Of a DNA stretch of 64,000 nucleotides, positions 30,794 to 51,629 are shown one piece after another. The DNA lies in the IMG/VR virus record IMGVR_UViG_3300031566_000009, positions 18,076 through 82,075 of that record, one strand, 5' to 3'. The stretch's first letter is position 1. The number at the start of each line of letters is the position of its first letter. Position numbers and translations under genes: made by a program. Under the pieces are notes generated by a model, which made no database searches, was not told the DNA's origin, and saw nothing but the letters and a program-made list of their open reading frames with translations. The DNA comes from a virus.

Positions 30794-31645
30794 ATGCGAA
30801 AAGCTACCCTCGTACTGAGTGACCTGCACTTTGGCGACGCGGGGCAATTTTATCGGTCTTTGATGGAATGTATGGACAGGGCTATAATAGAAATCAATAA
30901 CTTCAAACCAGACGTAACTCAAATAGCACTCAATGGCGATGCAGCAGCGGGAAGGGGGATCTTTCGATTACAAGAGGCACAGAACATCGTTCAGTTGGGT
31001 CCAGAGCAGATTTATTGGGCAGGCTGGGAAATCAGACAGTGGGATAGACGACTTGACAATAAAGCAGAATGGTATATAATACTTGGTAATCACGATCACT
31101 CTAACAGGGAAAACTTGGCTAGGCAGTTAGTTTTATTCTTACGCTTATTAGGTATCAATGCTAGATATGTAGATAGAGAATTCATTGGATATTTTGGAGA
31201 TAAAGAATCCGCTTTTCATATAGCGCACGGCTTTGGATATAGTAGTTATTATGCTAATTCGTATTCTGAAATCAGGGCTGCCTGGAAAAAGTTTATTGAA
31301 ATAGCACAGATTGATGGAATTCACATAGATCGTTTCATCAGAGCGCACGTACACAAACTTAATGTTGGTCAAGAGATTGGCCTCAATTGCCAAATTGATA
31401 CGTCGGGAGGCTGGCACAAACAAGAACGCCTTTCCCTGGAATTCTCCGTGCAGACCACGGGAGTCCTACTATATCTACATAATGCAGGTGCGCAACCACC
31501 ACTGACTATCAAAGCAATTGAGGCCAATCAAGACTTGCTTTTATCGGAGAATAAAAATATTGCGTTGCACTATCGAAATATGGAAGCCGCTGGAAGAGCG
31601 TTAAGCGACGTTGCGGCTTGGGGAAGAGTCGAAGGCATTTGGTAA
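30794..31645 (+). CDS. calcineurin-like metallophosphoesterase
   Basis: SDLH, NGD, GNHD, HG, HVH motifs. Confidence 0.8.
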   Translation: MRKATLVLSDLHFGDAGQFYRSLMECMDRAIIEINNFKPDVTQIALNGDAAAGRGIFRLQEAQNIVQLGPEQIYWAGWEIRQWDRRLDNKAEWYIILGNHDHSNRENLARQLVLFLRLLGINARYVDREFIGYFGDKESAFHIAHGFGYSSYYANSYSEIRAAWKKFIEIAQIDGIHIDRFIRAHVHKLNVGQEIGLNCQIDTSGGWHKQERLSLEFSVQTTGVLLYLHNAGAQPPLTIKAIEANQDLLLSENKNIALHYRNMEAAGRALSDVAAWGRVEGIW

Positions 31646-31646
31646 A

Positions 31647-31826
31647 ATGGGGAAGGATAGAGAATTGGAAATCGGGCGAAATGACATGGATTTGCTCGAA
31701 CCAAGACGACTGAGATTTACGGATAAACGAATAATTAACCAGAGAACTAGAAGGAAGTGGAGAGAAGCACTAAGGAACTCACATCGCGTTAGATATATGG
31801 AAAACTGGTGGACAGATTATGACTGA
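31647..31826 (+). CDS. small basic hypothetical protein
   Basis: fills gap, coupled to portal start. Confidence 0.35.
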   Translation: MGKDRELEIGRNDMDLLEPRRLRFTDKRIINQRTRRKWREALRNSHRVRYMENWWTDYD

Positions 31827-36382: not shown

Positions 36383-37831
36383 ATGGACATTGATTATAGG
36401 AAACTTGCGCAGGCTCTTCTCTCTGAGAAGACGCTAGAGACCAAGAATATTACTGGAACACCTAATGCACAACCGATTTATGCTCCTGGTGGAATTTTCA
36501 GTGCTCTTGGTTTGGAGGATACCGTCGTAAATGCTGCAACGACTCCTCGTGGCATTGCTTCGATACTTCCCGCATTCGGCACAACTTTTCGTAATCCGAT
36601 TTATCCTTTCATCACTGGTTTCGATCCTGATGGAAGCGCAGAGCCAGTGGGTGTCTGCGAGGACTGCCCTGGTGGAATCATCGAGGTATGTCATCAGACG
36701 GCCCAATTTGGTAGAATCTGCCGTGAAAGTCAGGAGATGGAAATCAATGAACTGATCCGAAAGGTGAATCGAGGAGAAACCACCGATCTTCGTGTACTTG
36801 GTGACGTGCTTGGACCCGCCCCGATGATGCCACAAGACGTGACGAGCGTTCGTGACTGGTTGAACTTGGTCACAAAGGCTCAGATGGTCATCGTTGGCAC
36901 GCAACTGCAATCCGCGTTTTATCCTATGGTCTGGCAAGGAAACCCCGTGAATAATACCGCTGGTGGTGGGTATATGGAATTCCCTGGATTCGATATTCTC
37001 ATTTCTCAACCAAAGGTAGACCTGTTCACTAACGTTCGCTGCCAAGCCATAGAGCCAGACATCAAAGACTTCAACTATGATAACGTCTGCGGAACGGCGG
37101 CTGGTGATAGGGACATCGTACAGTATATCTCCTACCTGGACATCTATCTGCGCCACGTAGCAGATCGTGCTGGACTTGCCCCTGTGGATTGGGTTATCGC
37201 TATGCGACCAGAACTGTGGATCGAACTTACAGCTTGCTGGCCGTGCCGGTATCTGACCAATCGTTGTCAGACTAGCGTAATGCCTGGTCAGGTCAACCCG
37301 ACTTTGGTGATCAATGATGAAGGAAATGTCCGAATGCGCGACGAAATGCGTAATGGGATGTTCCTCTGGGTCAATGGTCGCAAAGTCCCCGTGGTGACGG
37401 ATGACGGTATTTTTGAGGCTAATGTAGTCAACAATGCTAATCTGCAACCAGGCGAGTTCGCCTCTGATATTTACTACATCCCTCTCCGCGCACGCGGAAT
37501 GCGAGTGTCTTACTTTGAGTTTATGGACTATACACTTACTGCTCCAGAACTCGAAGTGCTCAAGAACAAGCACAGATACTGGGTGACGGACGGAGGCAGG
37601 TACATGTGGACGATGGAGGATCAGAGTTACTGCTTTTTGTTCCGCGCAAAGATCGAGCCTCGGCTTATCTTGCGGACTCCGCATCTGTCTGGCCGAATCG
37701 AGAATGTATCTTACGAGCCTCTGCAGCACTTGAGAGATTGGAATCCTGACAGTCCTTATAGGTTGAAGGGTGGCATCGATGAAATGCCGCTGATCGACGA
37801 GAACTGGTACAAAGGCTGGGAAACTAGATAG
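36383..37831 (+). CDS. major capsid protein
   Basis: 482 aa after protease/scaffold; AGGAGG RBS; biased codon usage; followed by hairpin. Confidence 0.75.
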   Translation: MDIDYRKLAQALLSEKTLETKNITGTPNAQPIYAPGGIFSALGLEDTVVNAATTPRGIASILPAFGTTFRNPIYPFITGFDPDGSAEPVGVCEDCPGGIIEVCHQTAQFGRICRESQEMEINELIRKVNRGETTDLRVLGDVLGPAPMMPQDVTSVRDWLNLVTKAQMVIVGTQLQSAFYPMVWQGNPVNNTAGGGYMEFPGFDILISQPKVDLFTNVRCQAIEPDIKDFNYDNVCGTAAGDRDIVQYISYLDIYLRHVADRAGLAPVDWVIAMRPELWIELTACWPCRYLTNRCQTSVMPGQVNPTLVINDEGNVRMRDEMRNGMFLWVNGRKVPVVTDDGIFEANVVNNANLQPGEFASDIYYIPLRARGMRVSYFEFMDYTLTAPELEVLKNKHRYWVTDGGRYMWTMEDQSYCFLFRAKIEPRLILRTPHLSGRIENVSYEPLQHLRDWNPDSPYRLKGGIDEMPLIDENWYKGWETR

Positions 37832-37844
37832 TAATAAGTAGAAA

Positions 37845-37874
37845 AATGGGTCGAGGGTAAAATCTCGACCCATT
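37845..37874 (+). terminator. stem-loop after MCP
   Basis: AATGGGTCGAG ... CTCGACCCATT inverted repeat. Confidence 0.55.
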
Positions 37875-37884
37875 CAAAGAAGGA

Positions 37885-38598
37885 ATGTTTATGAGTTTCA
37901 CTTGGCCTGATGTGGCGGTGCAAATAATCACCTACGAACGACCAGGTGAGATTCGTCGCGTCATAGTGGCATTAACTAAATACTTACAGTACGATGGGAA
38001 ACTTGTATGGTACTTAGCCGATGATGGCAGTAAGGGCAATTATGTGCTAGAGATCCAGCGAGATTTTCCTAAAATAAATTTTAGAGTGTCTGTTACGAAG
38101 AGGCTTGGATGGGGAGCAAATGTCACGAGATGTATGCAAATGATCGGCGAGAAGTATATTTTACTATGCGAGGATGATTATGTCGCCTTACAGCAGCTTG
38201 ACATAAATAAAGGTGTTGCCCTTCTCAATTCCACAGCGAATATTGGACTGGTGCGATATGACGGTTTGGCTGGACATAGACTAAATCTGGCAATCGAGGA
38301 AGTTAGTACTCCTCTGGGTGTCTTGCAATATCTGGAAATCCTAAAGAGCAGTCGCGGCCTCAATGTTTATAGCAATCGTCCTCATTTGAAGCACAAAAAA
38401 TTTCATCGCGCTTATGGGGAGTATCCAATGAATAAGTCTCTTGGTGAGACAGAGAGTGCCTTCGCACACAGGGTGAAAGATGCGCTTGAGAAGGGGCCGA
38501 AGATCATTACCCTCGAAAACGGAATTGTCCGTGCATTCAATCATATCGGCAAGTCTAGGCAAGGTACAGAATTCGATCAACTGAAAACAAAAGGATAA
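37885..38598 (+). CDS. glycosyltransferase, GT-A/GT2-like
   Basis: IITYERP, ADDGS, CEDD, HIG motifs. Confidence 0.8.
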   Translation: MFMSFTWPDVAVQIITYERPGEIRRVIVALTKYLQYDGKLVWYLADDGSKGNYVLEIQRDFPKINFRVSVTKRLGWGANVTRCMQMIGEKYILLCEDDYVALQQLDINKGVALLNSTANIGLVRYDGLAGHRLNLAIEEVSTPLGVLQYLEILKSSRGLNVYSNRPHLKHKKFHRAYGEYPMNKSLGETESAFAHRVKDALEKGPKIITLENGIVRAFNHIGKSRQGTEFDQLKTKG

Positions 38599-38600
38599 GA

Positions 38601-39167
38601 ATGGGCAAACTTATCGATGAGATGGGAAATCGCTATGGTCGATTGGTCATTATTGAAAGGAGTGGAAATAATAAATTTAACTGTGCTGAATGGCTTTGCA
38701 GATGCGACTGTGGCAATGAAAAAGTCATCGCTGGAGTGAATTTACGTAGAGGTAGAACAAAAAGTTGTGGCTGTTTTCAGAAAGAAAGACAGCGCGAGGC
38801 GCACAGGCTATCCATTGGGGAAGCATCTTTTAATGCTCTGGTTGGAAAGATGAAATTTCGTGCGGATAAACGTAATTTCGAATGGTCTTTGACAGTAGAT
38901 CAAGTACGCACCCTTTTTGAACAAAGTTGCTATTATTGTGGGATTAAACCACAACAAAAGATATTTATGAGGAGTTGTTATGGTTCTTATAATTATAATG
39001 GCCTAGACCGCGTAGATAGTTCCAAAGGTTACAGCATCGAAAATGTCGTGCCTTGCTGTGGAATTTGTAATGTAGCAAAAAATTCTATGACTGTCGACCA
39101 ATTTCGAGAATGGACTACGCGGCTCTATAAACATCTCATCGAAAAATCAGATGGAGTCGCTGAATGA
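38601..39167 (+). CDS. HNH-type homing endonuclease
   Basis: YGRL, WLCRCDCG, KSCGC N-domain; CYYCG, GLDRVDS.KGY..ENVVPCC..CN..K. Confidence 0.8.
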   Translation: MGKLIDEMGNRYGRLVIIERSGNNKFNCAEWLCRCDCGNEKVIAGVNLRRGRTKSCGCFQKERQREAHRLSIGEASFNALVGKMKFRADKRNFEWSLTVDQVRTLFEQSCYYCGIKPQQKIFMRSCYGSYNYNGLDRVDSSKGYSIENVVPCCGICNVAKNSMTVDQFREWTTRLYKHLIEKSDGVAE

Positions 39168-40333
39168 TCCAAGTTTTCAAGCCTTCTCTTGGTGAAGAAG
39201 AACTCGATGCTCTACGAGAAATCTTTGCTACTGGTTGGATAGGTTTAGGACCGAAGACAGCGGAATTTGAAGAAAAGTTCGCTGAATACGTTGGAGCAAA
39301 GTATGCCATTGCCACTAATAGTGCTACGGCAGCTCTTCACTTGTGTTGCATAGCATTGGATCTCGATGAGTGGGATGTGGTGATGATTCCTACGATGACT
39401 TTCGTTTCCACAGCTCATGCTCCTACTTATTGCGGAGCATTTCCCCTATTCGTGGACATCGAAACAGATACCCTGAATATCCAAATTAAAGATCTCGCTC
39501 ATCGATTAAGAATAGCAGCTAAATTAGGTCATCCTAGAATAAAGGCTATAATCCCCGTGCATTATGGAGGCCACGCTTGTCAGATGGATGCTATCTGGAA
39601 TATCGCAGACAAATATGGTCTTCGCGTTATAGAAGACGCTGCACACGCCTGTGGCAGTGAGTACAAGGGTCAGAAAATCGGCGGTTTAGAGCGTAGCTGG
39701 GCTACTTGTTTCAGTTTCCACGCCGTTAAAAATCTCCCCTGCGGAGATGGAGGAATGATTACTACCAATCACCTTGAATTGGTTGAGAGGCTTCGGCGTC
39801 TTCGTTGGTGCGGCATAGATAAGAGCACTTGGGATCGCACAGAAGAGGCTGAATATAAAAAGTATTCTTGGTACTATGAAGTGAACGAATTGGGTTATAA
39901 ATATCACATGAATGACATCGCAGCAGTCATTGGTTTATGTCAACTAGAAAAATTGGATAAAGGCAATGCCAGGCGTCGTGATATCGCAAACGCCTACACT
40001 GCAGCTTTTCAAGAAAAGGCTCCTTGGATAGAAACCCCTGTGGAAAAATCTTACGCAAAAAGCTCTTGGCATAATTACGTGATAAAGACTTCCTCTAGGG
40101 ATGCTTTGAATGCCTTCCTTAAGGAAAAGGGAATTGCCACAGGGGTGCATTATTATCCGATTCATCTGCAACCTTACTACCGTCGAAAGTTGGGTTCTGT
40201 GGTTTTGCCTGTCGCAGAACGTGTGTGGCCGAAGTTGTTGACCTTGCCTATGTATCCTAGTCTTACAGACGAGGAAATCTCTTACATTATATACTCTATC
40301 CTAGAGTTTGGAAGGGCAAATGTTAGCTGGTAA
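39164..40333 (+). CDS. DegT/DnrJ/EryC1/StrS PLP-dependent sugar aminotransferase
   Basis: NSATAALH, PVHYGG, IEDAAHA, FSFHAVKNL, GDGGM motifs. Confidence 0.95.
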   Translation: MIQVFKPSLGEEELDALREIFATGWIGLGPKTAEFEEKFAEYVGAKYAIATNSATAALHLCCIALDLDEWDVVMIPTMTFVSTAHAPTYCGAFPLFVDIETDTLNIQIKDLAHRLRIAAKLGHPRIKAIIPVHYGGHACQMDAIWNIADKYGLRVIEDAAHACGSEYKGQKIGGLERSWATCFSFHAVKNLPCGDGGMITTNHLELVERLRRLRWCGIDKSTWDRTEEAEYKKYSWYYEVNELGYKYHMNDIAAVIGLCQLEKLDKGNARRRDIANAYTAAFQEKAPWIETPVEKSYAKSSWHNYVIKTSSRDALNAFLKEKGIATGVHYYPIHLQPYYRRKLGSVVLPVAERVWPKLLTLPMYPSLTDEEISYIIYSILEFGRANVSW

Positions 40334-40907
40334 GAAAGTGCTGCTTAGGGCTTACGATAACTCTGTAGACGATGGCTGGGATGTCGTGAAATGGCGGAAT
40401 AATCCGCAAGTAAAGCCCTTCTTCTTCGAGGAGGAGCCACTTTCTCTGGATGCACATTTTGAGTGGGTTGAGAAAATTACGCATAATCTAAATGCTAAAT
40501 ATTACATGATTCAACTTGTAAACGAAGCCGATCCAGCTTTTGGAGTTCAAAAAGACGGAGATATCGGCACGATAGGACTGAATCACATCGATTGGCGAAG
40601 TCACACAGCAGAATTGAGTTGGTTTCTCATTGGTGAAGTAAAATATCGCAGTTGGGGCTATGGCACGGAGGCTGTATTCTTACTCCTTGATTATGCTTTC
40701 AATCACCTTAACCTTAACAAAATCGGGCTGTATACAATGGCTCTAAATGAGGGTGCTAGGGCGGTTTATCAAAAGATGGGTTTTCAGGAAGAGGGCGTTT
40801 TAAGAGAACAGAAATTTAAGAATGGTCAATATATAGATGTCCACATTTACGGCTTGCTGCGAGAGGACTTCAACGATCTGAAGAAGGAGAACCTTATTGG
40901 AGAGTAG
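40308..40907 (+). CDS. GNAT N-acetyltransferase (PseH/RimJ-like)
   Basis: WRN.P.V, IDW....AE, GYGTEA, N..A...Y.K.GF..EG.LR. Confidence 0.85.
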   Translation: MEGQMLAGKKVLLRAYDNSVDDGWDVVKWRNNPQVKPFFFEEEPLSLDAHFEWVEKITHNLNAKYYMIQLVNEADPAFGVQKDGDIGTIGLNHIDWRSHTAELSWFLIGEVKYRSWGYGTEAVFLLLDYAFNHLNLNKIGLYTMALNEGARAVYQKMGFQEEGVLREQKFKNGQYIDVHIYGLLREDFNDLKKENLIGE

Positions 40908-41475
40908 GGACTTCGAGAAACGTACAGTTCAATTTTTACAAGAATGTGGAATCTCTGGGAAGTCCGCTCTCGACATTGGAGCTAGATATAATCTAGAATA
41001 TGGCGCAGGTTTATTTGAGGGTCTACAGCGATTTGGTGTTGAGGACTACACAATACTGGAAATCTTTGAAGATAATGTAAGAGAATTAGGAGAACGCGGC
41101 TACCCTGTGGTGCAGGGAGATGTACGAGAGGTACAGAGATACTTTCTACCAGAAAGTTTCGATATAGTTTGTTGGATTCATGGCTTAGAGCACCTGAACA
41201 ATTTTGCGGAGATACAAAAAACTATTAAGAAGCTGAAGAGGCTAACAAGTAAGTGGTTGATTCTCTCGTTTCCAATTGGTATTGAGAAGCAAGGCGAATC
41301 TTATGGTAATCCATTTGAAAAGCATAGTTATACGATTGCGGGTGTGAAAAAGATATTAAGTTGCTTTGATAGGAAGGAGAATGTTCGATATATCGTATAT
41401 CGTAGGTTGCCAAGAAAAGTTGGTTTAGTCGCTGTGAAGTTCAATCCCAATGCAGTGATTCTCTATGAAAAGTGA
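40897..41475 (+). CDS. class I SAM-dependent methyltransferase
   Basis: LDIGA, GDVR, W.HG.EH; paralog of 61570-62127. Confidence 0.7.
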   Translation: MESRDFEKRTVQFLQECGISGKSALDIGARYNLEYGAGLFEGLQRFGVEDYTILEIFEDNVRELGERGYPVVQGDVREVQRYFLPESFDIVCWIHGLEHLNNFAEIQKTIKKLKRLTSKWLILSFPIGIEKQGESYGNPFEKHSYTIAGVKKILSCFDRKENVRYIVYRRLPRKVGLVAVKFNPNAVILYEK

Positions 41476-42421
41476 GAAGATATCACGCTTACAGCAAAAG
41501 AAAACTTTAACGGTGCATATCATCGCTCCCTCAGATATTAGTCCTTCAAAATACGCCCGAAGTTTGTGGGGAGATAATTGGGTAAAGGAGGAATTGTCCA
41601 AGGCTTTGAAGAAACTAGGTTATCGTATTTCAATTAGTAGACCAGATGTGCATCCACCAGATGTGTTGATTCACCTCTCTGGTGGTGAAATAGAGTACGT
41701 GTATAAAAAGAGAATAGAGCAGTTTCCAAATAGTATCTACAAAATCGCGTGGATTTATTCACACCCTGAAAAGGTCTCTACAACAAATTTGCGTGGATAC
41801 GATAGGATCTATTGTTGTTCTACATTCTTCATCAAGAAATTGTGGGAGATGGGTTACACAGAAGCGCGAGTAATGTTAGGTGCGACTTCTAAGAGACCTA
41901 TAAGTATGCCTAATAAATATGATGTCGTCTTCGTAGGAAATAATAGAGGCCCACACGGGATGGATGGTCGAGCGATCATTAACCATATTAAATCCCTTGG
42001 AAACCTTCCTTATAGAATCGGTATCTGGGGCAGCAATTGGGAGAACAATCAAGTCCCCAAGTCATGGTATGGTGGTCGCTATTGGCCGTATGAGGAGTTG
42101 AATAAACTCTATGCCTCCTCGAAGATTTGCCTCCAAGATCACAGGACAGAGATGGTCAATGAGGGTTTTGTTTCCGTAAAACTCTTTGACATTCTTGCAT
42201 CTGGTAGTCTTGCCATCAGTGATGCCAACAAAGGCATCGATCCCATCTTCAAAGGCGCTGTGCCACAGTATGAATCTGCACAGCATTTGAAACAACTATT
42301 AGATCACTATATCAATAATCCACAAGAAAGAGAACGTTTAATCAAGTTAGGTCAAAAAACCGCCTTCGCCTGCACCTGGGAGAAAAGGGCAGCCTTATTC
42401 GTGGAGGAACTCCGTGGCTGA
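41465..42421 (+). CDS. CgeB-like glycosyltransferase (GT-B)
   Basis: DVVFVGN, LYASSKI.L, KLFD.LA.G, ER......G...TW..R. Confidence 0.8.
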   Translation: MKSEKISRLQQKKTLTVHIIAPSDISPSKYARSLWGDNWVKEELSKALKKLGYRISISRPDVHPPDVLIHLSGGEIEYVYKKRIEQFPNSIYKIAWIYSHPEKVSTTNLRGYDRIYCCSTFFIKKLWEMGYTEARVMLGATSKRPISMPNKYDVVFVGNNRGPHGMDGRAIINHIKSLGNLPYRIGIWGSNWENNQVPKSWYGGRYWPYEELNKLYASSKICLQDHRTEMVNEGFVSVKLFDILASGSLAISDANKGIDPIFKGAVPQYESAQHLKQLLDHYINNPQERERLIKLGQKTAFACTWEKRAALFVEELRG

Positions 42422-43346
42422 ACGAATCTTTTATGTAGATTTATTTGAGAAGACCAACTCTAACTTTTATTGGCTCAATGCTTTCCGAAAACTTGGTGTA
42501 GTTCAACACTTCGACATTCGGAGTAAAAAGGAACGTCTCGAAAGCATCATCCTCGATTTTGCGCCGACACATATTCATCTTGGCGGTAGTGTAAAGCCTG
42601 GGAGAAGCGTCGATGCTCGAATGTTACGAAGAGTCAAAGATGAATTAAATTGTGGTGTCTCTGCTTTCTATGGCGACCGACCTTACTCTGAGTATCATTT
42701 GCGACTTGCTAGAGTTGCAGCAGATTATGTTTACATCTCAAATAAAACACACGTAAAACAGAATATTGAAAAGTGTGTTTTCAACTGTGCATACCTTCCC
42801 TGTCCTACCGAGCCAAGTATATTCAAGTATTGTCCATCGGAGCAGATTTACGATGTCGTTTTTCCTGGTTGGAATAACGATCCCTCCAGACGTAGAACTT
42901 TGAATGAGTTGCACAAGAGATTCAATCTCTATGTGGCTGGCCCGAATTGGGCAGGAACACAATTTAAGTCTCTCAGCCCCGCTTTCGGTGAGGACTTTGC
43001 TAAATTGTGTGGACAAACGAAGATTATGCTCAGTCTGATCGGAGACGAATGGCGACATTTAGAAGGATACTTCTCAAATCGCTTGCCCAATGTTTTAGGT
43101 TCTCGTTGCTTCCTTATTCAGACTTATTCTGAAGGAATCGAGGATTTATTCACCAATCACAAGCATCTGGTATGGTACAAATCAGATCAGGAACTCTTTG
43201 CTATGCTTGATTATTATTTGAAACACCCAAAAGAGCGTACAGAAATTGCTAATAGTGGACAGGAAGAAGTTTTAGCACGCTATACATTCACTCAACACAC
43301 AAAAAAGATGATAAAAGAGTGTCATGTTGCAACTCAATCTAGGTAG
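42414..43346 (+). CDS. CgeB-like glycosyltransferase (GT-B)
   Basis: DVVF.G, YFSNR, LF..HLVWY, ER.EIA..G. Confidence 0.8.
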   Translation: MAERIFYVDLFEKTNSNFYWLNAFRKLGVVQHFDIRSKKERLESIILDFAPTHIHLGGSVKPGRSVDARMLRRVKDELNCGVSAFYGDRPYSEYHLRLARVAADYVYISNKTHVKQNIEKCVFNCAYLPCPTEPSIFKYCPSEQIYDVVFPGWNNDPSRRRTLNELHKRFNLYVAGPNWAGTQFKSLSPAFGEDFAKLCGQTKIMLSLIGDEWRHLEGYFSNRLPNVLGSRCFLIQTYSEGIEDLFTNHKHLVWYKSDQELFAMLDYYLKHPKERTEIANSGQEEVLARYTFTQHTKKMIKECHVATQSR

Positions 43347-43812
43347 TGGAACTTCGCGGATGGCCGGATTTAAAAACATCGACAAATACGCGAAGGAGGC
43401 GGATCTGAATGTAGACGCTTCTGAACTTCCTTATGCTAATGATACAGTAGATAAGATTTATACGTCTCATATGGTTGAGCATGTAACCCTTCCTGAGTTC
43501 CAGAAGATGCTGAGAGAATGGAGGAGAGTTCTAAGGTTTGGTGGAGTATTGATGATTCGTTGCCCAAATATTGAGGCTTATCTAAGGAGATGGTTGGCAG
43601 GCGATTACAAATTGCGCTGGGGCGAAGGTTTGACCTGGCTTTTGGGATCGGTCTCAAGAGGAAAAGGGCATATCAATAGGAACTTTTTCACGGCGGATAG
43701 GATGCACCAGATTGTTAAAGATTCTGGTTTCAAGATAAGGAGATGTACTGTTTATCCAACTAGGTCAGGACATATGCCAGATGGCGACATACTCTGTGAG
43801 GCTATAAAGTGA
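43324..43812 (+). CDS. methyltransferase type 11
   Basis: LNLGSG, SH.VEH, EW.RVL..GG. Confidence 0.8.
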   Translation: MLQLNLGSGTSRMAGFKNIDKYAKEADLNVDASELPYANDTVDKIYTSHMVEHVTLPEFQKMLREWRRVLRFGGVLMIRCPNIEAYLRRWLAGDYKLRWGEGLTWLLGSVSRGKGHINRNFFTADRMHQIVKDSGFKIRRCTVYPTRSGHMPDGDILCEAIK

Positions 43813-45056
43813 CTTTCTTATCTGTGGTAACTCGGTCTTGTGGAAGAACTAGACTTCTCGCAAGAAATAGAAAATCGCTTGCTACTCAAATTGATCCAGA
43901 CTATGAACATATCATAATTACTGATAATGAGCATAAAGGACTGCACGAAGCCAATAAAAGTCTGAGTAAAAATAAGCACAGGGTGAAAGGAAAGTATGTT
44001 CTTATCTTAGATGATGATGACTATATTAGCGACCGAAGTTTCATCAAGCATTTAAAGAATGTCGTCGCACAACATCCTGTTGACATCATTCTTTTCAAAG
44101 TTTACCGTAAACAGTTTAGCGAAACGTTACCTTCTAAGAGAACTTGGGGGAAACCACCCGTATTGGGAGAAATCGGCTCTTGTTGCTTCGTGGTAAAGTA
44201 TGCAATTTGGAGACGCTATATCCATGAGTTTGGACAGCCAAGATATGGAGATTATCATTTTATCAAGGCTTTATTTAATGCAGGATGTAGTCATTACTGG
44301 GTGAATCGAACGATGATTACGGTGGATAAAATAGGAGGTGGAAAAGGCTTACCCATCAAGGTTGTGGTATCACCAGATGTAGAAAAGGTTTATCCACAAG
44401 TAACAGTAGTATTAGTAAATTACTGCACGAAAGAATTAACGAACGAGGCGAGACGAACGATGATGCTGTATTATCCAAAAATATCTATTATAATGATAGA
44501 TAATGGATCTAAAGATGGGTCCACAGAGTATATCAAAGTGGTCGGAGAGATGCACGAGAATATAACAACTATCTTGAATGAGCAGAATATTGGACATGGC
44601 CCTGCAATGAATCAGGGTATCAATTTAGCTAAGACTCCATTCGTATTTCTTTACGATTCAGACGCCTCATTAAAATGCTCAGATCTCTTAGAAATGATGT
44701 TGGCAGAGTTTGCGAAGAATCCAAATCTCTATGCAATTGGTTGGCTCAGAAAGGTAGATAAATTTTCAGGCGTGCCTACAGGGGGTAAAGGAGGAATGGA
44801 TTATGTTCACCCACACGCAGCAATGATTGATAGGGAAAAATTTCTTCAATTGACACCGATGGAAAACAGCGGAGCGCCATGCACCGCAAATATGCGGGCT
44901 GCGTTGGAAAGAGGCTATCAATTGAAGGATTTCCCTGTCCAGAGTTATGTAAAGCATTTGATCGCAGGTACGAGACGGAGATTCGGAGGGCATTGGAAGC
45001 CTGGTTCAACTATGAGAGCAAAAACGTGGAGAGCGGACGAACACTATCCTATCTAA
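43809..45056 (+). CDS. two-domain GT2 glycosyltransferase
   Basis: LDDDD domain then DNGS.DGS / N.GHG.A.N.G / DSD domain. Confidence 0.8.
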   Translation: MTFLSVVTRSCGRTRLLARNRKSLATQIDPDYEHIIITDNEHKGLHEANKSLSKNKHRVKGKYVLILDDDDYISDRSFIKHLKNVVAQHPVDIILFKVYRKQFSETLPSKRTWGKPPVLGEIGSCCFVVKYAIWRRYIHEFGQPRYGDYHFIKALFNAGCSHYWVNRTMITVDKIGGGKGLPIKVVVSPDVEKVYPQVTVVLVNYCTKELTNEARRTMMLYYPKISIIMIDNGSKDGSTEYIKVVGEMHENITTILNEQNIGHGPAMNQGINLAKTPFVFLYDSDASLKCSDLLEMMLAEFAKNPNLYAIGWLRKVDKFSGVPTGGKGGMDYVHPHAAMIDREKFLQLTPMENSGAPCTANMRAALERGYQLKDFPVQSYVKHLIAGTRRRFGGHWKPGSTMRAKTWRADEHYPI

Positions 45057-45068
45057 TAATGGGGAAAA

Positions 45069-47651
45069 ATGAAATTATTTCTTAGTCCTAACGCACCCGA
45101 TATAAATATCTCGCAGAAGTCCATCACAGGGGTTGAACGAGTCATCCTTGAACAACGACGTTACTTGACAGATTATCTGAAATTCGTTGATTCTCCACTA
45201 GAGGCAGATGTCATCGCGGCGCATGTTGTTCCCTACGCTGATACAGTTCCAGATGTACTTCACAACCACGGACTTTATCCCACAGGGGAATTTGCCCTGC
45301 CCGTATGGATGTGGCGAGGAAATAAAAATGTTGTAAGTGCAATTCGTCGAGCCAAAAAGATTACAGTTCCATCCCCGTGGGTCGCTGAGATCTTCATCAG
45401 AGACATGGGCTTCTGTCCAACTATCATCTCGCATGGCATTCGTCTTGAAGAATGGCAAGAACCTCTTACAGCAAGGGAAATGAATGTAGTTTTCAATAAG
45501 AATCGAGTCGATGCTGTCTGCACTCCAGAACCTGCGCAACGCTTGGCCGCATTGTGTCCTGGTATAAAGTTCCTTTCCACTTTTGGCTCGCCAACTAAGA
45601 ATTTAAATGTTATTGGCCTCCAACCCTACGAGACCATGAAGGAAATCCTCTACAAAAATGGTATTTATTTCGCGCCAACGAAAGAGACGTTCGGGATTGG
45701 AATTCTCGAAGCCTTCGCCGCAGGGATGCCTGTATTGGCTTGGTCATGGGGCAACGCCGTCGAATTAGTCGCTCATAAAAAGACTGGATACCTAGCCAAA
45801 CCAGGCGACTACGACGATACTGTAGCAGGACTAAGGTATTGCATCGACAATTTCGACAAACTTTCACAAGCCGCTCGACAAGAAGCCCTAAAACACGACT
45901 GGAAAGAAATTATCCCAAAATACGTCGAAGTCTATGAATCAGCCCTAGAAAAGCACAAAGGGCCACAGGTTACAGTAGTAATCCCATGTTATAATTACGC
46001 TGCTTTCATTGCCGACGCCATTCGCTCTGTGCAAGCGCAAACCTTCGAGAATTGGGAATGTATCATCGTCGATGATGGCTCGACGGACGACTCGTTAATG
46101 GAAATCAACAAAGTTATAGGAAACGATCCAAAATTCAAGGTCTTGGTACAATCCAACCGTGGTGTGGCAAGTGCAAGGAACAGGGGAGCGATGGAGGCCA
46201 AAGGAGAGTTTCTATGCTTCCTCGATGCAGATGACACCTTGAAGGAAAAATTTCTTGCGACCCTACTCCCGCCTTTACTTGAGGATCGTTCCATTGGCAT
46301 TTCCTTTGGCAGTCTTGAGCTTCACACCCCCCGTGGCCCTGTCTCTGGAAGTTGGCCAAACGGTTTCAATTTTGATGCTCAGTTGAAGAAGCAGAACCAA
46401 GTGCCCTCCTGTAATCTGCTCCGCAGAGATGCCTTCTTCCGTGCTGGTGGGTATAAGAATCATTTCGCACTTGGCGAGGACGCCGAATTGTGGACTAACA
46501 TTGGTTTAGCGGGTTTCAGTGCGATTCATACAACTCAAACCCCTGTGATGATCTACCGAATCCACGGGGAGAGCGTAACCAATAAGGCGAGGAAGGAAAA
46601 AACGAAAGAACCTAATTGGTTAGACTTTATTCCCGCCGCTAACGGTGGCCCACAGCCGTTTGCCAGCATTGCAACTCCAGAAAACTATTCTCACCCTGTG
46701 TTCAGCTACGATCAGCCTCTTGTTTCCATCATCATTCCTGTCGGCGATGGTCACGAAGCAGTCTTAGAGAATGCAATAGAATCAGTGAAAACGCAGACTG
46801 ACACAAGATGGGAATTAATTGTAGTCGATGACACAGTATTAGGCAAAATCAAAAATTGTGGTATAATACCTTATGTAGAGCGTTATCCATTCGTAAACTG
46901 GAAGAGGAAGAGAAAGTACGGCAACGTCAGTGCTGCTAGAAATCTAGGGGCGAATTCTGCGAAGGGAAGATTTCTGCTCTTCTTGGATGCAGATGATGAA
47001 CTAGACAAGCACTTTCTTAGGCAGACCTTGAAAGTTGCGGCTATCAGGCCAAAATCGATCATCTATACTGATTGGATTTCGCTGCCAGAAGGGAAAATTC
47101 ATCACGCTGAGGAGTGGAACTTTGAGCGACTGAAGAAGCAGGCTCTCTTCGTCATCACCTTTCTACATCCAAAAGAAGCTTTCGATGAGGTCGGCGGATT
47201 CAATGAAGAGATTCCTGTTTGGGAGGATTGGGACTATACTGTACAACTAGCGCATAAAGGTTATCATGGTATAAGGGTTCCCGAACCACTATTCTCATAT
47301 CATTACGAGAGTGGCAAGAGAAGGGAAGAGTGTCTCGATAACGCCGAAGAACTAATGAAGGAATTCAGGCAGAGATATTTAACTTTGGAAGCCTTGCCTC
47401 CTAAAGAATTGGGATTAGTAATATTACCTGAAGATCCATTAATTAAGAAGCCAATCAAAAAGGATGAAGCGATGGCAACGAAAGCACTAATCAAATACAC
47501 AGGTGATAATATGGGAGCGAGGACTTTTAGGACTCCTTTAGGAAACCGCTATAGATTTGATGGTCGCAGTCAACGGCAGTCTTGGGTTCCGATAAAAGAC
47601 GTACACTTTTTCGAGCGGATGCTCGACTTTCAAGTTGTTGAGACACAATAG
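45069..47651 (+). CDS. multidomain glycosyltransferase GT4+GT2+GT2 with small C-terminal domain
   Basis: ETFGIGILEA (GT4); IPCYN/DDGSTD/FLDADD; second FLDADD/EDWD; C-terminal YTGDN domain. Confidence 0.9.
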   Translation: MKLFLSPNAPDINISQKSITGVERVILEQRRYLTDYLKFVDSPLEADVIAAHVVPYADTVPDVLHNHGLYPTGEFALPVWMWRGNKNVVSAIRRAKKITVPSPWVAEIFIRDMGFCPTIISHGIRLEEWQEPLTAREMNVVFNKNRVDAVCTPEPAQRLAALCPGIKFLSTFGSPTKNLNVIGLQPYETMKEILYKNGIYFAPTKETFGIGILEAFAAGMPVLAWSWGNAVELVAHKKTGYLAKPGDYDDTVAGLRYCIDNFDKLSQAARQEALKHDWKEIIPKYVEVYESALEKHKGPQVTVVIPCYNYAAFIADAIRSVQAQTFENWECIIVDDGSTDDSLMEINKVIGNDPKFKVLVQSNRGVASARNRGAMEAKGEFLCFLDADDTLKEKFLATLLPPLLEDRSIGISFGSLELHTPRGPVSGSWPNGFNFDAQLKKQNQVPSCNLLRRDAFFRAGGYKNHFALGEDAELWTNIGLAGFSAIHTTQTPVMIYRIHGESVTNKARKEKTKEPNWLDFIPAANGGPQPFASIATPENYSHPVFSYDQPLVSIIIPVGDGHEAVLENAIESVKTQTDTRWELIVVDDTVLGKIKNCGIIPYVERYPFVNWKRKRKYGNVSAARNLGANSAKGRFLLFLDADDELDKHFLRQTLKVAAIRPKSIIYTDWISLPEGKIHHAEEWNFERLKKQALFVITFLHPKEAFDEVGGFNEEIPVWEDWDYTVQLAHKGYHGIRVPEPLFSYHYESGKRREECLDNAEELMKEFRQRYLTLEALPPKELGLVILPEDPLIKKPIKKDEAMATKALIKYTGDNMGARTFRTPLGNRYRFDGRSQRQSWVPIKDVHFFERMLDFQVVETQ

Positions 47652-47885
47652 ATGGGCTGTGGTTGTAGCAGAAACGTCGTTAATATAAAGAGCCGTCCAC
47701 CAGATTTGAGGGGACATCCTACTGTGATTCTTGAATATACTGGAGACAACAAAGGGTCGAGGACAGTGAATACTCCCCTTGGAAGTCTATACAAATTTGA
47801 TGGGGTAGATCATAAGAGGTTCACTGTTTTGAGTGGCGATGTATTCTTCTTTACGCAACAACTAGAACAATTCAAGGTGATATAA
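47652..47885 (+). CDS. small protein, MGCxC + YxG..G.R...TP.G..Y.F domain
   Basis: paralog of GT C-terminus and of next gene. Confidence 0.65.
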   Translation: MGCGCSRNVVNIKSRPPDLRGHPTVILEYTGDNKGSRTVNTPLGSLYKFDGVDHKRFTVLSGDVFFFTQQLEQFKVI

Positions 47886-48109
47886 TGGGTTGCAGGTGCA
47901 GGAAAAAATTAGACTCATTAAAATCTAGGAATCTCGATGGATTGATAACTGTTACGTATCTGGGAATTTATCAGGGTTCGAGGAACTTCAAGACTCCCAC
48001 AGGGAGCGTCTATCGATTTGGTACTGGAGCAAATTCAACCAAATTAGTCAATATGCGCGATAAAGATTATTTTAGTGCTTTACCTGACTTTGCGATTGTG
48101 GAGGGATAA
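47885..48109 (+). CDS. small protein, MGCxC + YxG..G.R...TP.G..Y.F domain
   Basis: paralog of previous gene. Confidence 0.65.
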   Translation: MGCRCRKKLDSLKSRNLDGLITVTYLGIYQGSRNFKTPTGSVYRFGTGANSTKLVNMRDKDYFSALPDFAIVEG

Positions 48110-49300
48110 ATGTCTAGAGCAGATACTCCCACGTTGTTAAGCTTGGATCATTATTCAGAGATTCTCGGACTCGATCCTCGACATTTCAATCAAATGAAGT
48201 GTAATGCTTTCCCTGTGGTATCGACCTGTGAATCTATCTGGTATCAATATGACTGGATGGATAAGGGCAAGGCTTCACGGGAGGGGTTAGCGCGGGCCAT
48301 CGCTCAAGCCGAGCAGATGATAATGAATGAGTTAGAGTTCTCACCAGCTCCAAGATGGTTCGAGGCTGAGAAGCACACTTATCCAAGGCAAGATCGAGTG
48401 TTGACTAATTATGGAACAATCTATTATCCAGCACAAAATCAGGATAGACGAAAAACGGTTACTACACGATATGGTTATTTCATAGAGGGTGGCAGAAAAA
48501 AGATCGATGCGATTGGAAGCAATCGACCAGTTCAGTATATCGATTTAGATGGCGATGGCTTCAAGGAAATCGCCAGAGTAACCGTACCTTATATCAATGC
48601 AAATACATCTTTGACTAAAGAGGGAATTGGTGTTTTTCCCTCGACTGATACAGATGAAATCAAGCGTATTCGTGGACTTAAGATAGGACTTACGAATACT
48701 CAAGTAATAATTGAAGGACAAAGTTCACAGTTTGTGCATCCCATCAATTGGCAAATAGATGCTGCTATAAATGGTGACGATGCTACTGTTTTCTTGGATG
48801 AAGTATTCGTTTATTATATTCACACATCTGAACAAGGAACGAGTTTCGCTCCCGTAGTCTTCGAGTGGGAAAGAAGCACTGAAATAAACTTCGTAACAGC
48901 ATCTGGAGTACTGCGGGCACGAAATCCTAATCTTGGAATCGTAACATTAGTTCCAGCGGTTTGGGATAGTGCTACATCAACATGGTTAGCTGCATATTTC
49001 AATATCACAGATGAACCGTACTACGCCAATCTCTATTATAGGGCTGGATTTCCTGTGAATTATCAGGGAAGAATGGCTGCGCCCTTTGATAGAGCCGTGG
49101 CAGCTCTCGCAACTTCTCTGCTCACTGAGCCAATCTGTGGTTGTGGTGGGTCTGAGAAGTTGGCACAGGAATGGCAATCTAGGCCAACAAGTCCTGTAGC
49201 TTTTGAGCAGTTGACAGCTCCATTTGGACCTAAAAATGGGGCTTGGGAAGCGTGGTTGATAGTTTCGCAATACTTGGGCGTTGGATACGCCTTGACTTAG
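48110..49300 (+). CDS. head-tail adaptor-like structural protein
   Basis: AI..AE..I..L...P ... Y.AG ... AVA.LA pattern; position before tail tube. Confidence 0.5.
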   Translation: MSRADTPTLLSLDHYSEILGLDPRHFNQMKCNAFPVVSTCESIWYQYDWMDKGKASREGLARAIAQAEQMIMNELEFSPAPRWFEAEKHTYPRQDRVLTNYGTIYYPAQNQDRRKTVTTRYGYFIEGGRKKIDAIGSNRPVQYIDLDGDGFKEIARVTVPYINANTSLTKEGIGVFPSTDTDEIKRIRGLKIGLTNTQVIIEGQSSQFVHPINWQIDAAINGDDATVFLDEVFVYYIHTSEQGTSFAPVVFEWERSTEINFVTASGVLRARNPNLGIVTLVPAVWDSATSTWLAAYFNITDEPYYANLYYRAGFPVNYQGRMAAPFDRAVAALATSLLTEPICGCGGSEKLAQEWQSRPTSPVAFEQLTAPFGPKNGAWEAWLIVSQYLGVGYALT

Positions 49301-49309
49301 GAGGTTAAA

Positions 49310-50818
49310 ATGACTGACATTTTTTGGAAACGTGGGCAAGGAAGGGCTTTCATACAGCCTTATCGAAATCCTTCCCACAATAATGTTTATCTCGGCTGTG
49401 CTAGAGTTGGAGGTTACACCAAATCTCACGGTGATCTCACACCAGTGTATTGTCCATCTCCTGAAAGGTATGGACAATATGAAGTGGTAGATGTCATCAG
49501 AGGTGAAGGTGGACTTCCGACTACATCGGTCGATGCTCGATTTGGTTTGGTCAATGAAATTCTCGAACAAGAATGCGATTTCGATCTGGATGTGCATTAT
49601 GGAAGGTGTGCTGATCCCACAGATTTCAATAGGGGTTGGGAGAAAATCATAAAGTTTGAGCGGTCTGGAATCACAGAGGAATCTTCAGACGAACTTTCCT
49701 CTTTGGAACCTACCGATGAAGCTTTGATTATGCTCACTGCAAGCATTACTTCTTGGACACGGATTTTTATCGAAAGAATGACCTATGCCGAACGAGCCGC
49801 TAGTGAGACCGATACTCCAGTTTTGGCGGTCGCTATCTGCGACGATTTATCCTGTGGTGAGTGTGGTTGGGAGTCTGGAGGTTGCCGACGGCTGTTGGCT
49901 GCTACAGCGGCAGTTGCGGGATCTCCTTACGATCTTCCTGAGCTACTCGAATCTTTGGATAAAGGCTTAAACTGGAACGAGTGGGACATCGATACGCTCC
50001 ATGATGCAGATGTCTCAGGGATCGCCTGTGTTGGAAGTCGCGTAGCTGTAGTCTCTGCTGGTTCTACAGGACTGCACTATGCAAGTTTGTCTGACTTGGA
50101 CTCGTGGACGGAAGTCTCGAATGTGTTCCAAGTTGGCGCACTGCCTTTGGCAATCTTCGCATTCTCTCCAACACAAGTCTGGATTGTCGGACAGAATGGC
50201 TACGTATACTTCACAGACGACATCACCTCTGCTGCGGCTTACGAAGTTCAGGATGCTGGCGCGGCTGCTGCTGGGGATGACCTTTTGGACGTTCACGCTG
50301 CGACCAGTCGAAACGTGGTGGCGGTCGGCGAACTCGGTACAGTAGTTGTAACAACGAATGGGGGACTCACCTGGGCTGCGGCAGCTTCATCGCCTACTGC
50401 CTCTGATCTCTACTGCGTGTGGACGAGGACACCATATCATTGGTTGGTCGGTGGTGCAGATGGGAATCTCTACTACACACTAAATGCGGCTGTGGCTTGG
50501 GTACAGAAGGAATTCCCCGATGACGGAAGTGGTATCGTGGAGGACATCGTTTTTTATGGCTACACAAATTCCTCGGTAGGATTCCTAGCCTATGCTTACG
50601 ATCCTACAGGGACGCCACCGAGTGCGACGAGTGATGGACGGATCTTAAGGACTTTGGACTCAGGTAACAGTTGGTACATCGTGCCAGAGGAAGAGGCGTC
50701 ATCTGTTCCTGACAATCTTGCCTTGACAGAACTCGCTGTTTGCCGAGATCCAAACTTCGTTTTGGCAGGTGGCTATCGCACACTTTTGGATGGTGTGGTT
50801 GTTGTCGGAGAAGGCTGA
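49310..50818 (+). CDS. major tail protein with C-terminal BNR/YCF48-like beta-propeller
   Basis: strong RBS, followed by hairpin and chaperones; S.D.G..W / T.NGG.TW Asp-box repeats. Confidence 0.6.
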   Translation: MTDIFWKRGQGRAFIQPYRNPSHNNVYLGCARVGGYTKSHGDLTPVYCPSPERYGQYEVVDVIRGEGGLPTTSVDARFGLVNEILEQECDFDLDVHYGRCADPTDFNRGWEKIIKFERSGITEESSDELSSLEPTDEALIMLTASITSWTRIFIERMTYAERAASETDTPVLAVAICDDLSCGECGWESGGCRRLLAATAAVAGSPYDLPELLESLDKGLNWNEWDIDTLHDADVSGIACVGSRVAVVSAGSTGLHYASLSDLDSWTEVSNVFQVGALPLAIFAFSPTQVWIVGQNGYVYFTDDITSAAAYEVQDAGAAAAGDDLLDVHAATSRNVVAVGELGTVVVTTNGGLTWAAAASSPTASDLYCVWTRTPYHWLVGGADGNLYYTLNAAVAWVQKEFPDDGSGIVEDIVFYGYTNSSVGFLAYAYDPTGTPPSATSDGRILRTLDSGNSWYIVPEEEASSVPDNLALTELAVCRDPNFVLAGGYRTLLDGVVVVGEG

Positions 50819-50870: not shown

Positions 50871-51629
50871 TTGTATAAAAGGGGGACACCTGAATATGAT
50901 TTGTGGAGAGACACGCCTAAATATGATTTATGGCGTAAGCGAATCTCTGTAGCAATGACTGGTAAAAGGATGTCTGAAGAAACCAAGCAGAAGATAAGTG
51001 AAGCGAAGATTGGTGAGCGAAATCCCTTTTATGGTAAACATCATAGCGCGGCTACACTTGCAAAGATGAGTGCAACAAGGATTGGCAAACAGTGTGGTGA
51101 ACAAAATCCTATGTATGGAAAACATCACAGCGTGGTGACGCTTGCGAAAATGAGTGCAGCAGAGATTGGCAAACAACGCGGTGAGCGACACCCCATGTAT
51201 GGGAAACATCCTAGTACAGAGACCCTTGCAAAAATGAGTGCAATAAAGATTGGTAAACATCCTAGTGATGAGACACGTGCGAAAACAAGTGCAGCGATGA
51301 CTGGTGAACAAAATCCTTCTTGGCGTGGTGGTATCTCGTTTGAGCCATATCCAACGACTTGGACTGCCCATTTTCGGAAGGCAATACGAAAGCGCGACAA
51401 CCACACCTGTGCATTATGTAGTAAGGTGCAGGGGGAAAAGAGATTTGCGGTTCATCACATCAACTACGATAAAGAGGATCTGCGCCCCGAAAATTTGGTT
51501 ACTCTTTGTAAATCTTGTCACAGCAAAACTGGCAGTGATCGTGAATACTGGACGAATCTCTTCGAGATGGTTTACGTTCCTGATTTTTCCAAATGGCCTA
51601 TATTCCTGATTTCCCAAAAGAAAGGATGA
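50871..51629 (+). CDS. NUMOD3-repeat HNH homing endonuclease
   Basis: repeated NP.YGKHHS..TLAKMS; RD..TC..C, VHHI.Y.K, NL.TLC..CH. Confidence 0.85.
   Translation: MYKRGTPEYDLWRDTPKYDLWRKRISVAMTGKRMSEETKQKISEAKIGERNPFYGKHHSAATLAKMSATRIGKQCGEQNPMYGKHHSVVTLAKMSAAEIGKQRGERHPMYGKHPSTETLAKMSAIKIGKHPSDETRAKTSAAMTGEQNPSWRGGISFEPYPTTWTAHFRKAIRKRDNHTCALCSKVQGEKRFAVHHINYDKEDLRPENLVTLCKSCHSKTGSDREYWTNLFEMVYVPDFSKWPIFLISQKKG

Follow-up and report, generated by a model that had tools for sequence, protein, structure and literature searches.

A sugar-gene island between the capsid and adaptor genes of a phage family and its proposed role in virion glycosylation

The stretch of DNA analysed here, 64,000 nucleotides long and called the window, is the final 64 kb of one 82,075-bp contig of an uncultured soil phage (IMG/VR record IMGVR_UViG_3300031566_000009), and all coordinates are positions in this window. 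On its plus strand a run of glycosyltransferase (GT) and other sugar-enzyme genes, called here the island, sits between the gene of the major capsid protein and that of a predicted head-tail adaptor. The island is family-wide, its core constant and its accessory genes variable, and we suggest that it probably serves to glycosylate a component of the phage particle.

Results

Genes of the island and its borders

The enzyme part of the island spans 37885-47651, and two small proteins extend the block to 48109. Gene content was called by Pfam, PHROGs and NCBIfam. The features from the capsid gene to the adaptor gene are given below (aa, amino acids; AF2, AlphaFold2).

36383-37831, plus strand: major capsid protein with HK97 fold, 482 aa, assigned from an AF2 model with Foldseek
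37844-37875, plus strand: hairpin with a 12-bp stem just 3' of the capsid stop codon, minimum free energy -21.5 kcal/mol, no T-run on the plus strand
37885-38598, plus strand: GT2 glycosyltransferase, 237 aa (PF00535, 27.9 bits against a cut-off of 23.3)
38601-39167, plus strand: HNH/endonuclease-VII-like homing endonuclease (phrog_1035, 1.5e-23; phrog_374, 2.6e-18)
39164-40333, plus strand: DegT-family sugar 4-aminotransferase dependent on pyridoxal phosphate (PF01041, 7.7e-110)
40308-40907, plus strand: GNAT N-acetyltransferase, PseH-like (PF13302, 2.3e-21; TIGR03585 PseH, 85 bits against a cut-off of 93.1)
40897-41475, plus strand: S-adenosylmethionine (SAM) methyltransferase 1 (PF08241, 23.6 bits against a cut-off of 21.2)
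41465-42421, plus strand: Glyco_trans_1_2 (PF13524) GT, first paralog (1.6e-19)
42414-43346, plus strand: Glyco_trans_1_2 (PF13524) GT, second paralog (3.7e-22)
43324-43812, plus strand: SAM methyltransferase 2 (PF08241, 4e-9)
43809-45056, plus strand: two-domain GT2, 415 aa (PF00535, 4.2e-25, two stretches)
45069-47651, plus strand: GT4-GT2-GT2 fusion (the big GT), 860 aa, with a C-terminal domain of ~55 aa (Pfam, 7e-16 and 3e-49)
47652-47885, plus strand: small protein of 77 aa with an MGCGC start, no family match
47885-48109, plus strand: small protein of 74 aa with an MGCRC start, no family match
48110-49300, plus strand: predicted gp6-like head-tail adaptor, 396 aa, with an inserted beta domain (AF2 model and VIA)

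An original prediction, made from the letters of the window, had described a glycan-building cluster here. Its count of five GT genes with about eight GT domains is exact by the three libraries, and the two methyltransferases, the aminotransferase and the acetyltransferase that it named are all found, together with the homing endonuclease that it had overlooked. Its claim that the genes are mostly translationally coupled within the late operon is borne out by the 12 junctions from 37885 to 48110, eight of which are overlaps (1-26 nt) and four gaps (0-12 nt). It had placed the cluster between capsid and neck genes, and here the capsid side is firm and the neck side of modest strength, as detailed below.

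All open reading frames (ORFs) of the island are intact, and its G+C content is 0.41-0.43 against 0.45-0.49 in the flanks. The two PF13524 GTs share 30% identity with each other and belong to a family that we take to be the 'CgeB-like' one. The homing endonuclease is, by comparison with its relatives, a mobile passenger: its homolog in the complete relative G001 is 48% identical and lies at a different junction, the one from the double GT2 to the big GT, as expected for a mobile gene.

The aminotransferase finds its best NCBIfam match in PseC (367.4 bits, under the cut-off of 423.5), and its nearest cellular homologs, at 58-69% identity, include some that JGI names perosamine synthetase. No nucleoside diphosphate (NDP)-sugar 4,6-dehydratase (PF02719, PF01370) was found on the 82-kb contig in a search whose controls responded. 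A Pse pathway is thus not indicated: PseC and PseH stay below their NCBIfam cut-offs and a PseB-type dehydratase is absent from the contig. PseG, PseI and PseF have no Pfam match among the island proteins, the set to which that search was confined.

A Kyte-Doolittle scan found no hydrophobic 19-mer in any island protein. Among the 435 contig ORFs of at least 50 aa the same simple hydropathy scan, which was not a dedicated predictor, found no polytopic protein (at least three separate hydrophobic segments) except the tape measure. It thus gave no polytopic candidate on the contig for a flippase, a polymerase, GtrA or an initiating phosphoglycosyl transferase, in agreement with the predicted lack of flippase, O-antigen polymerase and GtrA-like genes.

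These observations bear on the remodelling of the host envelope, in which soluble GTs would act on undecaprenyl-linked or teichoic-acid-type precursors and use the initiating transferases and flippases of the host, for instance for excluding other phages or for trapping or releasing progeny. The nearest named GT families are TuaG, EpsD, WcaA and PglI-like, all far under cut-offs, and the missing 4,6-dehydratase would mean reliance on host sugar metabolism. The same reading is the published one for the GT-rich hypervariable regions of pelagimyophages and cyanomyophages, in the accessible parts of the papers (PMC7029224, PMC12801897). However, no enzyme of the island has a membrane-anchoring segment, the genes are coupled inside the head-to-neck run throughout the family, and a domain of the core GT recurs in small proteins at the adaptor gene. 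Moreover, the integrase family PF00589 has no match in five genomes, four of them complete with terminal repeats, and lysogenic conversion is therefore unlikely; PF00239 gives only one 13-bit match in the contig, under its cut-off. Hence, we regard envelope remodelling as unlikely and favour glycosylation of the phage's own particle.

The capsid side of the island is well defined. The AF2 model of the 482-aa protein, computed from 44 sequences, has a mean predicted local distance difference test (pLDDT) score of 78.4. Its top Foldseek matches in the PDB are the capsids of phiXacJX1, P23-45, D3, HK97 and SU10 (E 5e-10 to 1e-7), and a search of BFVD agrees, with top matches that are all phage capsids. 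Since the model tops only with HK97-fold capsids in both libraries, we assign the protein as the major capsid protein. In sequence it has 941 metagenomic homologs at E<=1e-3 and no match in Pfam, PHROGs or GenBank phages (tblastn), nor a meaningful one among PDB sequences. An antisense ORF of 479 aa covers the entire capsid gene (36434-37873, minus strand); it is most likely not a gene, because in the related loci L001 and L003 this frame is split into short fragments.

On the other side, the protein of 48110-49300 has an AF2 model of good quality (pLDDT 87, predicted template modelling score 0.86). Its VIA matches are consistent, with modest Z scores: 7.8 for the gene transfer agent virion 6tba_2A, 6.5 for the phage 812 neck, 6.1 for Mycofy1, 6.0 for Mu, 5.9 for JBD30 and 4.9 for HK97 gp6, with DT57C, P74-26, Douge, YqbG and Bxb1 following down to 4.4. 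The matches cover the terminal helices within model residues 5-396, and residues 131-238 form the inserted beta domain. An Atlas lead at 0.90-0.91 links this gene to HCP/Phage_connect_1 (head-completion/connector families). Foldseek returned nothing for the model at E<=1e-3, and the protein has no match in Pfam, PHROGs or the PDB (sequence or profile). We suggest, with modest support, that it is a gp6-like head-tail adaptor.

The hairpin behind the capsid gene has counterparts in the family. The 70 nt 3' of the capsid gene have a mean folding energy of -25.6 kcal/mol, compared with -16.6 kcal/mol in control windows, and the position reaches z<-1.5 in 54 of 80 loci, with sequences that differ between loci. 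In some loci a T-run follows the hairpin, which makes it terminator-like. It is a candidate attenuator or stabiliser of mRNA 3' ends and as such would suit high expression of the capsid and lower expression of the enzymes. Promoter-like sites are not enriched (31 found, 32 expected from shuffled sequence).

The island across relatives

IMG/VR was scanned with an alignment of the capsid protein, which gave 145 related contigs, 80 of which were kept as loci; sugar genes were detected by tblastn with the window proteins and by a hidden Markov model of the big GT. Fifty-one loci extend for at least 5 kb beyond the capsid gene, and 48 of them have sugar genes 3' of it on the same strand; L032, L039 and L065 are negative. 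None of the 51 has them upstream of the capsid gene or on the opposite strand. Where the adaptor homolog is in view (29 loci), the big GT lies between capsid and adaptor genes in 28, with a gap of 3.7-9.6 kb; the exception is L032, with a gap of 1,071 bp and no GT.

The cluster had been described as inserted, and a one-off insertion does not survive the survey of synteny behind the capsid gene. The belief that it is larger than known phage examples stands only in part: it exceeds the one O-methyltransferase and three GTs of mycobacteriophage Corndog and is ordinary in its own family. The gap between capsid and adaptor genes is 10,279 bp in the window and 9,993 bp in one complete relative, and in several relatives sugar genes are still present at the 10-kb edge of the visible flank. 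The island is thus large yet unexceptional within its own lineage.

The accessory genes vary even between close relatives. In L003 (93% capsid identity) the stretch of ~5 kb from the aminotransferase to the methyltransferase is replaced by a TOD1/MUCI70-like GT and other genes. In L001 (best segment 99% identical) the place of the homing endonuclease is taken by genes for a methyltransferase and a DUF2334 protein and by an unknown ORF. By tblastn, 27 of 80 loci have a relative of the 237-aa GT2 3' of their capsid gene, and the N-terminal domain of the 415-aa double GT2 is a separate gene in the complete relatives G002 and G005.

A Pfam count of accessory genes covered 118 ORFs of 100-779 aa from 26 loci; the window itself, L003 and L007, a duplicate, did not contribute to it, and big GTs, shorter ORFs (<100 aa) and three ORFs that overlap a discarded big-GT frame were also set aside. 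The 118 comprise, among others, 12 epimerase/dehydratases (nine of them Polysacc_synt_2, PseB/CapD-type), 12 GT2, eight DegT, nine Methyltransf_24, five sulfotransferases, two GHMP kinases and 11 DUF1360 proteins. The last-named may correspond to ORFs of ~100-130 aa that lie just 5' of the adaptor gene in several loci. Two DNA N6/N4 methylases also occur in the relatives' islands (L004-L080, capsid to adaptor).

Among contigs from four soil runs, those identical to the window span 37750-42442 and 44069-46871. In summed contig depth, the stretches 38107-42416 and 44141-46295 lie below the capsid gene, 42417-44140 and 46300-49300, and loose contig ends fall at 37973, 39163, 41507 and 41994. This pattern is compatible with co-occurring strains that have common flanks and differing cassettes; contig depth is insufficient for this by itself.

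The lower G+C content of the island suggests a foreign origin, and the enzymes may have some other cytoplasmic target (during takeover, a protein of the host or a small molecule), or the island may be drifting cargo with no current function. We consider this very unlikely, in view of intact ORFs throughout, core catalytic residues that are invariant over capsid identities of 37-93%, and a position fixed in 48 of 51 loci. The constant element of the island is its last enzyme.

The core glycosyltransferase and its C-terminal domain

The GT4-GT2-GT2 fusion is the constant core of the island. Its length among relatives is 785-1,038 aa, and all 26 aligned fusions retain the signature residues of each of the three domains (E206/E214; D336, D386/D388 and E470-D471; D640/D642/D643 and E719-D720); these catalytic residues remain unchanged over the whole range of capsid identities, 37-93%. 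Among GenBank phages no full-length fusion was found, as 0 of 73 matching records cover at least 80% of it.

The last ~55 residues of the big GT recur in the two small proteins that follow it: they are 46% and 31% identical to the 77-aa and 74-aa proteins, respectively (1.5e-11 and 4.5e-8, blastp). An iterated profile found this domain in 24 proteins from 19 loci (the window among them): 12 have it at the C-terminus of a large GT, and 12 are free or short proteins encoded just 5' of the adaptor gene. The GT-less locus L032 retains a 186-aa protein with the domain between its capsid and adaptor genes.

Against 1.84 billion representatives the domain profile matched 462 proteins at E<=1e-3. The best 150 of these include 61 of at most 130 aa, 87 of 131-1,100 aa and two repeat giants; the 87 longer ones carry GT2 (36), GT4 (13), PF13524 (7), HHH_5 (6), E3_binding (2) and methyltransferase (1) domains. 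An MxCxxC start (MGCGC, MACGGCG, MPCGGCG) is present in 25 of the 61 small free copies. Within the domain a Tyr is nearly invariant, and a Phe and an Asp are invariant. A profile search found no relative in the PDB, and Pfam gave single chance-level rows only on 23 segments of the domain. We suggest that it is a previously undescribed module which links GTs to head-proximal proteins.

This distribution raises the question whether the module is itself the acceptor. In this glycogenin-like scheme the GT would prime its own copy of the domain as well as the free small proteins, perhaps at the Tyr that is nearly invariant, and the small proteins so glycosylated would decorate the head. The conserved Tyr, Phe and Asp are in line with such a role, as are the GT2 fusions in 36 of the 87 longer representatives, the 61 free copies among the best 150, and the domain protein that GT-less L032 keeps between capsid and adaptor genes. 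However, the module has no known relative, and its presence on HHH_5 and E3_binding proteins suits a binding module better than an acceptor. Hence, we think a self-priming carrier quite unlikely, and prefer the module as a docking element in the glycosylation of a head-associated component.

Acceptor candidates and the second cassette

The C-terminal tail of the capsid protein was considered as an acceptor and rejected: it has three Ser/Thr in its last 40 residues, and the capsid of GT-less L032 has no indel. No Ser/Thr tract of at least 7 in 10 residues occurs in the capsid, adaptor or 502-aa (p502) proteins.

Two further features lie at the end of the window.

58987-62555, plus strand: second cassette with GT4, GT2, GT2 and two methyltransferases (Pfam)
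62548-64000, plus strand: tail protein with a DNRLRE domain and then a Thr/Ser tract that crosses the contig end and resumes at genome positions 1-1308

The second cassette has paralogs of island genes: methyltransferase 1 (40897-41475) is 33% identical to that at 61570-62127 (1.5e-12), and methyltransferase 2 (43324-43812) matches that at 62112-62555 (1.4e-11). Directly 3' of the cassette, the tail protein has a tract of at least about 110 Thr/Ser, the sole Ser/Thr tract in the genome, and ends in a C-terminal domain of ~385 aa. This adjacency and the paralogy of the methyltransferases support self-glycosylation of the tail of this phage.

The tail protein is specific to this phage among the five genomes compared. 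Four complete relatives have no comparable tract in a real gene and no DNRLRE N-terminal domain, the empty search of five relatives for this domain being itself uninformative, and homologs of the second cassette were not found in the complete relatives (G001-G003, G005). As an acceptor for the whole family, the Thr/Ser-tract protein was rejected, since it is missing in complete relatives that retain the island.

The surrounding genome

The start and the end of the contig both fall inside one Thr/Ser-coding repeat, and the contig is therefore probably a permuted, near-complete genome. CheckV estimates its completeness at 53%, which looks too low given this shared end repeat and the four complete relatives with terminal repeats, which measure 71-84 kb.

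The late genes of the plus strand run in the order small terminase, large terminase (TerL), portal, 462-aa protein, 482-aa protein (36383-37831) and island. They continue after the island with the two small proteins, the 396-aa protein, the 502-aa protein, an HNH gene and a probable chaperone, and further on with the tape measure, Dit, an M23 peptidase, the second GT cassette and the Thr/Ser-tract protein. Between large terminase and portal lies a gene for a calcineurin-like metallophosphoesterase (30794-31645). The portal gene (31819-34293) holds a LAGLIDADG intein (PF03161, 3.3e-18; Intein_splicing under its cut-off); the insert of ~1.1 kb is missing in the close relatives L001 and L002, and matches to the G001 portal skip residues 115-493. 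The 502-aa protein (49310-50818) sits where the tail-tube gene is expected, is kept in 19 related loci and has a C-terminus with a Ycf48-like BNR beta-propeller (profile against PDB 9e-14; Pfam PSII_BNR 3.4e-9). The HNH-type homing endonuclease gene at 50871-51629 is the second of the late operon. A tRNA scan of the window found none.

Judged by sequence comparison, the lineage has no counterpart among GenBank phages. Megablast of 36383-49300 against them gave no match, and the best GenBank matches of TerL are haloarchaeal viruses at 26% identity. The nearest named relatives of the island aminotransferase are metagenome-assembled genomes of Dehalococcoidia and Planctomycetes.

The genome-wide searches bear on DNA hypermodification, in which the GTs would glycosylate hydroxymethylated bases of the phage genome. 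This is a known activity of phage GTs, as the available parts of two papers state (10.1101/2023.12.21.572611, PMC13326640), and the replication region has DNA methyltransferase-like ORFs, read from translations with no family search. However, a genome search whose controls responded found no thymidylate-synthase-like hydroxymethylase (PF00303), the replication genes are far from the island, which lies within the head operon, and eight GT domains with amino-sugar tailoring are in our judgement excessive for base modification. A search for TET/JBP (PF12851) was uninformative, its controls being silent. We consider hypermodification highly improbable.

Discussion

We suggest, with moderate confidence, that the island directs cytoplasmic protein glycosylation, by which a virion component associated with the head would receive a methylated heteroglycan that includes an N-acetylated 4-amino sugar. 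The island sits between the gene of the confirmed HK97 capsid and that of the gp6-like adaptor. The original prediction had likewise proposed a methylated virion glycan assembled in the cytoplasm: the soluble enzymes, the intact motifs, the coupling to head genes, the attenuator-like hairpin and the lack of hydroxymethylase and integrase matches fit such assembly, and the virion as its target is the more tentative part.

The proposed pathway would proceed as follows. Read-through past the hairpin behind the capsid gene may give low expression of the enzymes. The aminotransferase and the GNAT acetyltransferase, judged by their families, would convert an NDP-4-keto-6-deoxy sugar made by the host to an N-acetylated 4-amino sugar donor; the dehydratase for this donor is lacking on the contig, yet present in the islands of relatives. 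The eight soluble GT domains would then assemble the glycan on the protein itself, with no need of lipid carrier or flippase, and the two methyltransferases would cap its sugars. The C-terminal domain of ~55 residues, which is shared with small proteins and repeatedly fused to GTs, may bring the constant GT4-GT2-GT2 enzyme to its substrate by docking. The swapping of accessory genes observed between close relatives might alter the glycan in the manner of a serotype locus.

Several points weigh against glycosylation of the head. The tail of the capsid is not Ser/Thr-rich, and GT-less L032 shows no capsid indel. The Thr/Ser-tract protein is not the common target of the family, because complete relatives keep the island without that protein. 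The adaptor assignment is based on Z scores below 8. With the CheckV estimate of 53%, absences on the contig are provisional, not proof. The relatives of the aminotransferase and of TerL are insufficient for naming the host. Peripheral GT2 and GT4 enzymes can also work on host lipid-linked intermediates. Finally, Corndog gp34-38 and gp41 have no phmmer match at E<=10 among 31 window proteins; against 4,425 ORFs of the family loci they have none at 1e-3.

A more specific version, which we put forward only tentatively, is that of a 'capsid serotype locus'. The constant three-domain GT, tethered by the ~55-residue domain, would build a strain-specific glycan on small carrier or decoration proteins that bear the same domain, perhaps on its nearly invariant Tyr, and strains that occur together would exchange the accessory genes under diversifying selection. 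The glycan would be methylated and aminated, and sulfated in some relatives. If this were true, it would be a head glycan coat with its own carrier-and-docking module, outside the phages of Actinobacteria, for which virion glycosylation is demonstrated.

If the island does glycosylate the particle, sugar-coated particles would be widespread among the phages of soil (941 capsid homologs, 145 related viral contigs). The coat would be chemically elaborate, with amino, acetyl and methyl groups and, in relatives, sulfate, and it would vary like a bacterial serotype locus. The island offers clonable parts for studying how a phage targets glycosylation to its own particles, and it raises the question of what selects glycan diversity where antibodies are absent. 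In the literature accessible to search, supplements excluded, we found neither the lineage nor the ~55-residue domain described, nor any GT of three domains that stays constant while its accessory genes are exchanged.

The closest phage systems are those of mycobacteriophages. The primary work on virion glycosylation in Che8, Corndog and Myrna is reportedly that of Freeman et al. (2023, Cell Host Microbe). These phages glycosylate the C-termini of capsid and tail-tube subunits with their own GTs, according to the portions of later papers available to us (PMC12363180, PMC11600133, PMC12619734), and the four Corndog genes, which lie between portal and protease, encode three GTs and an O-methyltransferase (PMC4351075, PMC11600133, likewise seen in part). 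In the accessible parts of the literature, virion glycosylation by phage-encoded enzymes is demonstrated only for actinobacteriophages (PMC12363180, PMC11600133, PMC13313380). As in these phages, so far as the sources seen describe them, the GT genes here are embedded in the virion structural operon and the enzymes are soluble, those of the mycobacteriophages acting on virion proteins in the cytoplasm. However, unlike the four genes of Corndog, the island has ten enzyme genes with eight GT domains, a position between capsid and adaptor, and amino-sugar tailoring. Its phage also has a capsid without a Ser/Thr-rich C-terminal tail, unlike the mycobacteriophage acceptors with their glycosylated C-termini, and its core GT, unlike the enzymes described for mycobacteriophages, carries a docking-like domain.

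In enzyme content the island appears closer to the fibril cluster of mimivirus (APMV) than to the mycobacteriophage systems, to the extent that both are described in the parts consulted. The APMV cluster, of 9-12 genes, contains an aminotransferase, an N-acetyltransferase, a SAM methyltransferase and five GTs, and makes 2-O-methyl-4-N-acetyl-viosamine glycans on a virion protein in the cytoplasm (PMC9614988, accessible text). An aminotransferase, an N-acetyltransferase, methyltransferases and several GTs likewise stand in one cluster here, and the functional parallel is drawn from gene families only. APMV differs, as far as this text goes, in being a eukaryotic giant virus that encodes its own 4,6-dehydratase (R141) and carrier protein (R135).

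Amino-sugar tailoring enzymes of the Pse type take part in the flagellin glycosylation of Caulobacter by FlmG. In the sections of the FlmG paper that we could consult (PMC7591256), a soluble GT with a separate substrate-binding module acts on a structural protein, flagellin, before assembly, and the core GT of the island resembles it in having a soluble GT and a separate module. Unlike in FlmG, the docking-like domain is here the new ~55-residue module, and the likeness is one of description only.

Finally, variable sets of GTs and sugar-nucleotide enzymes in or beside structural modules are shared with the GT regions of pelagimyophages and cyanomyophages, also uncultured phages, as described in the accessible parts of two papers (PMC7029224, PMC12801897). 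Those regions, in the same accounts, lie in the tail-fibre/host-recognition zone of phages of ~150 kb or larger and are read as modifying host O-chains. The present island, in contrast, keeps one place, from the capsid gene to the adaptor gene, and one constant core enzyme.

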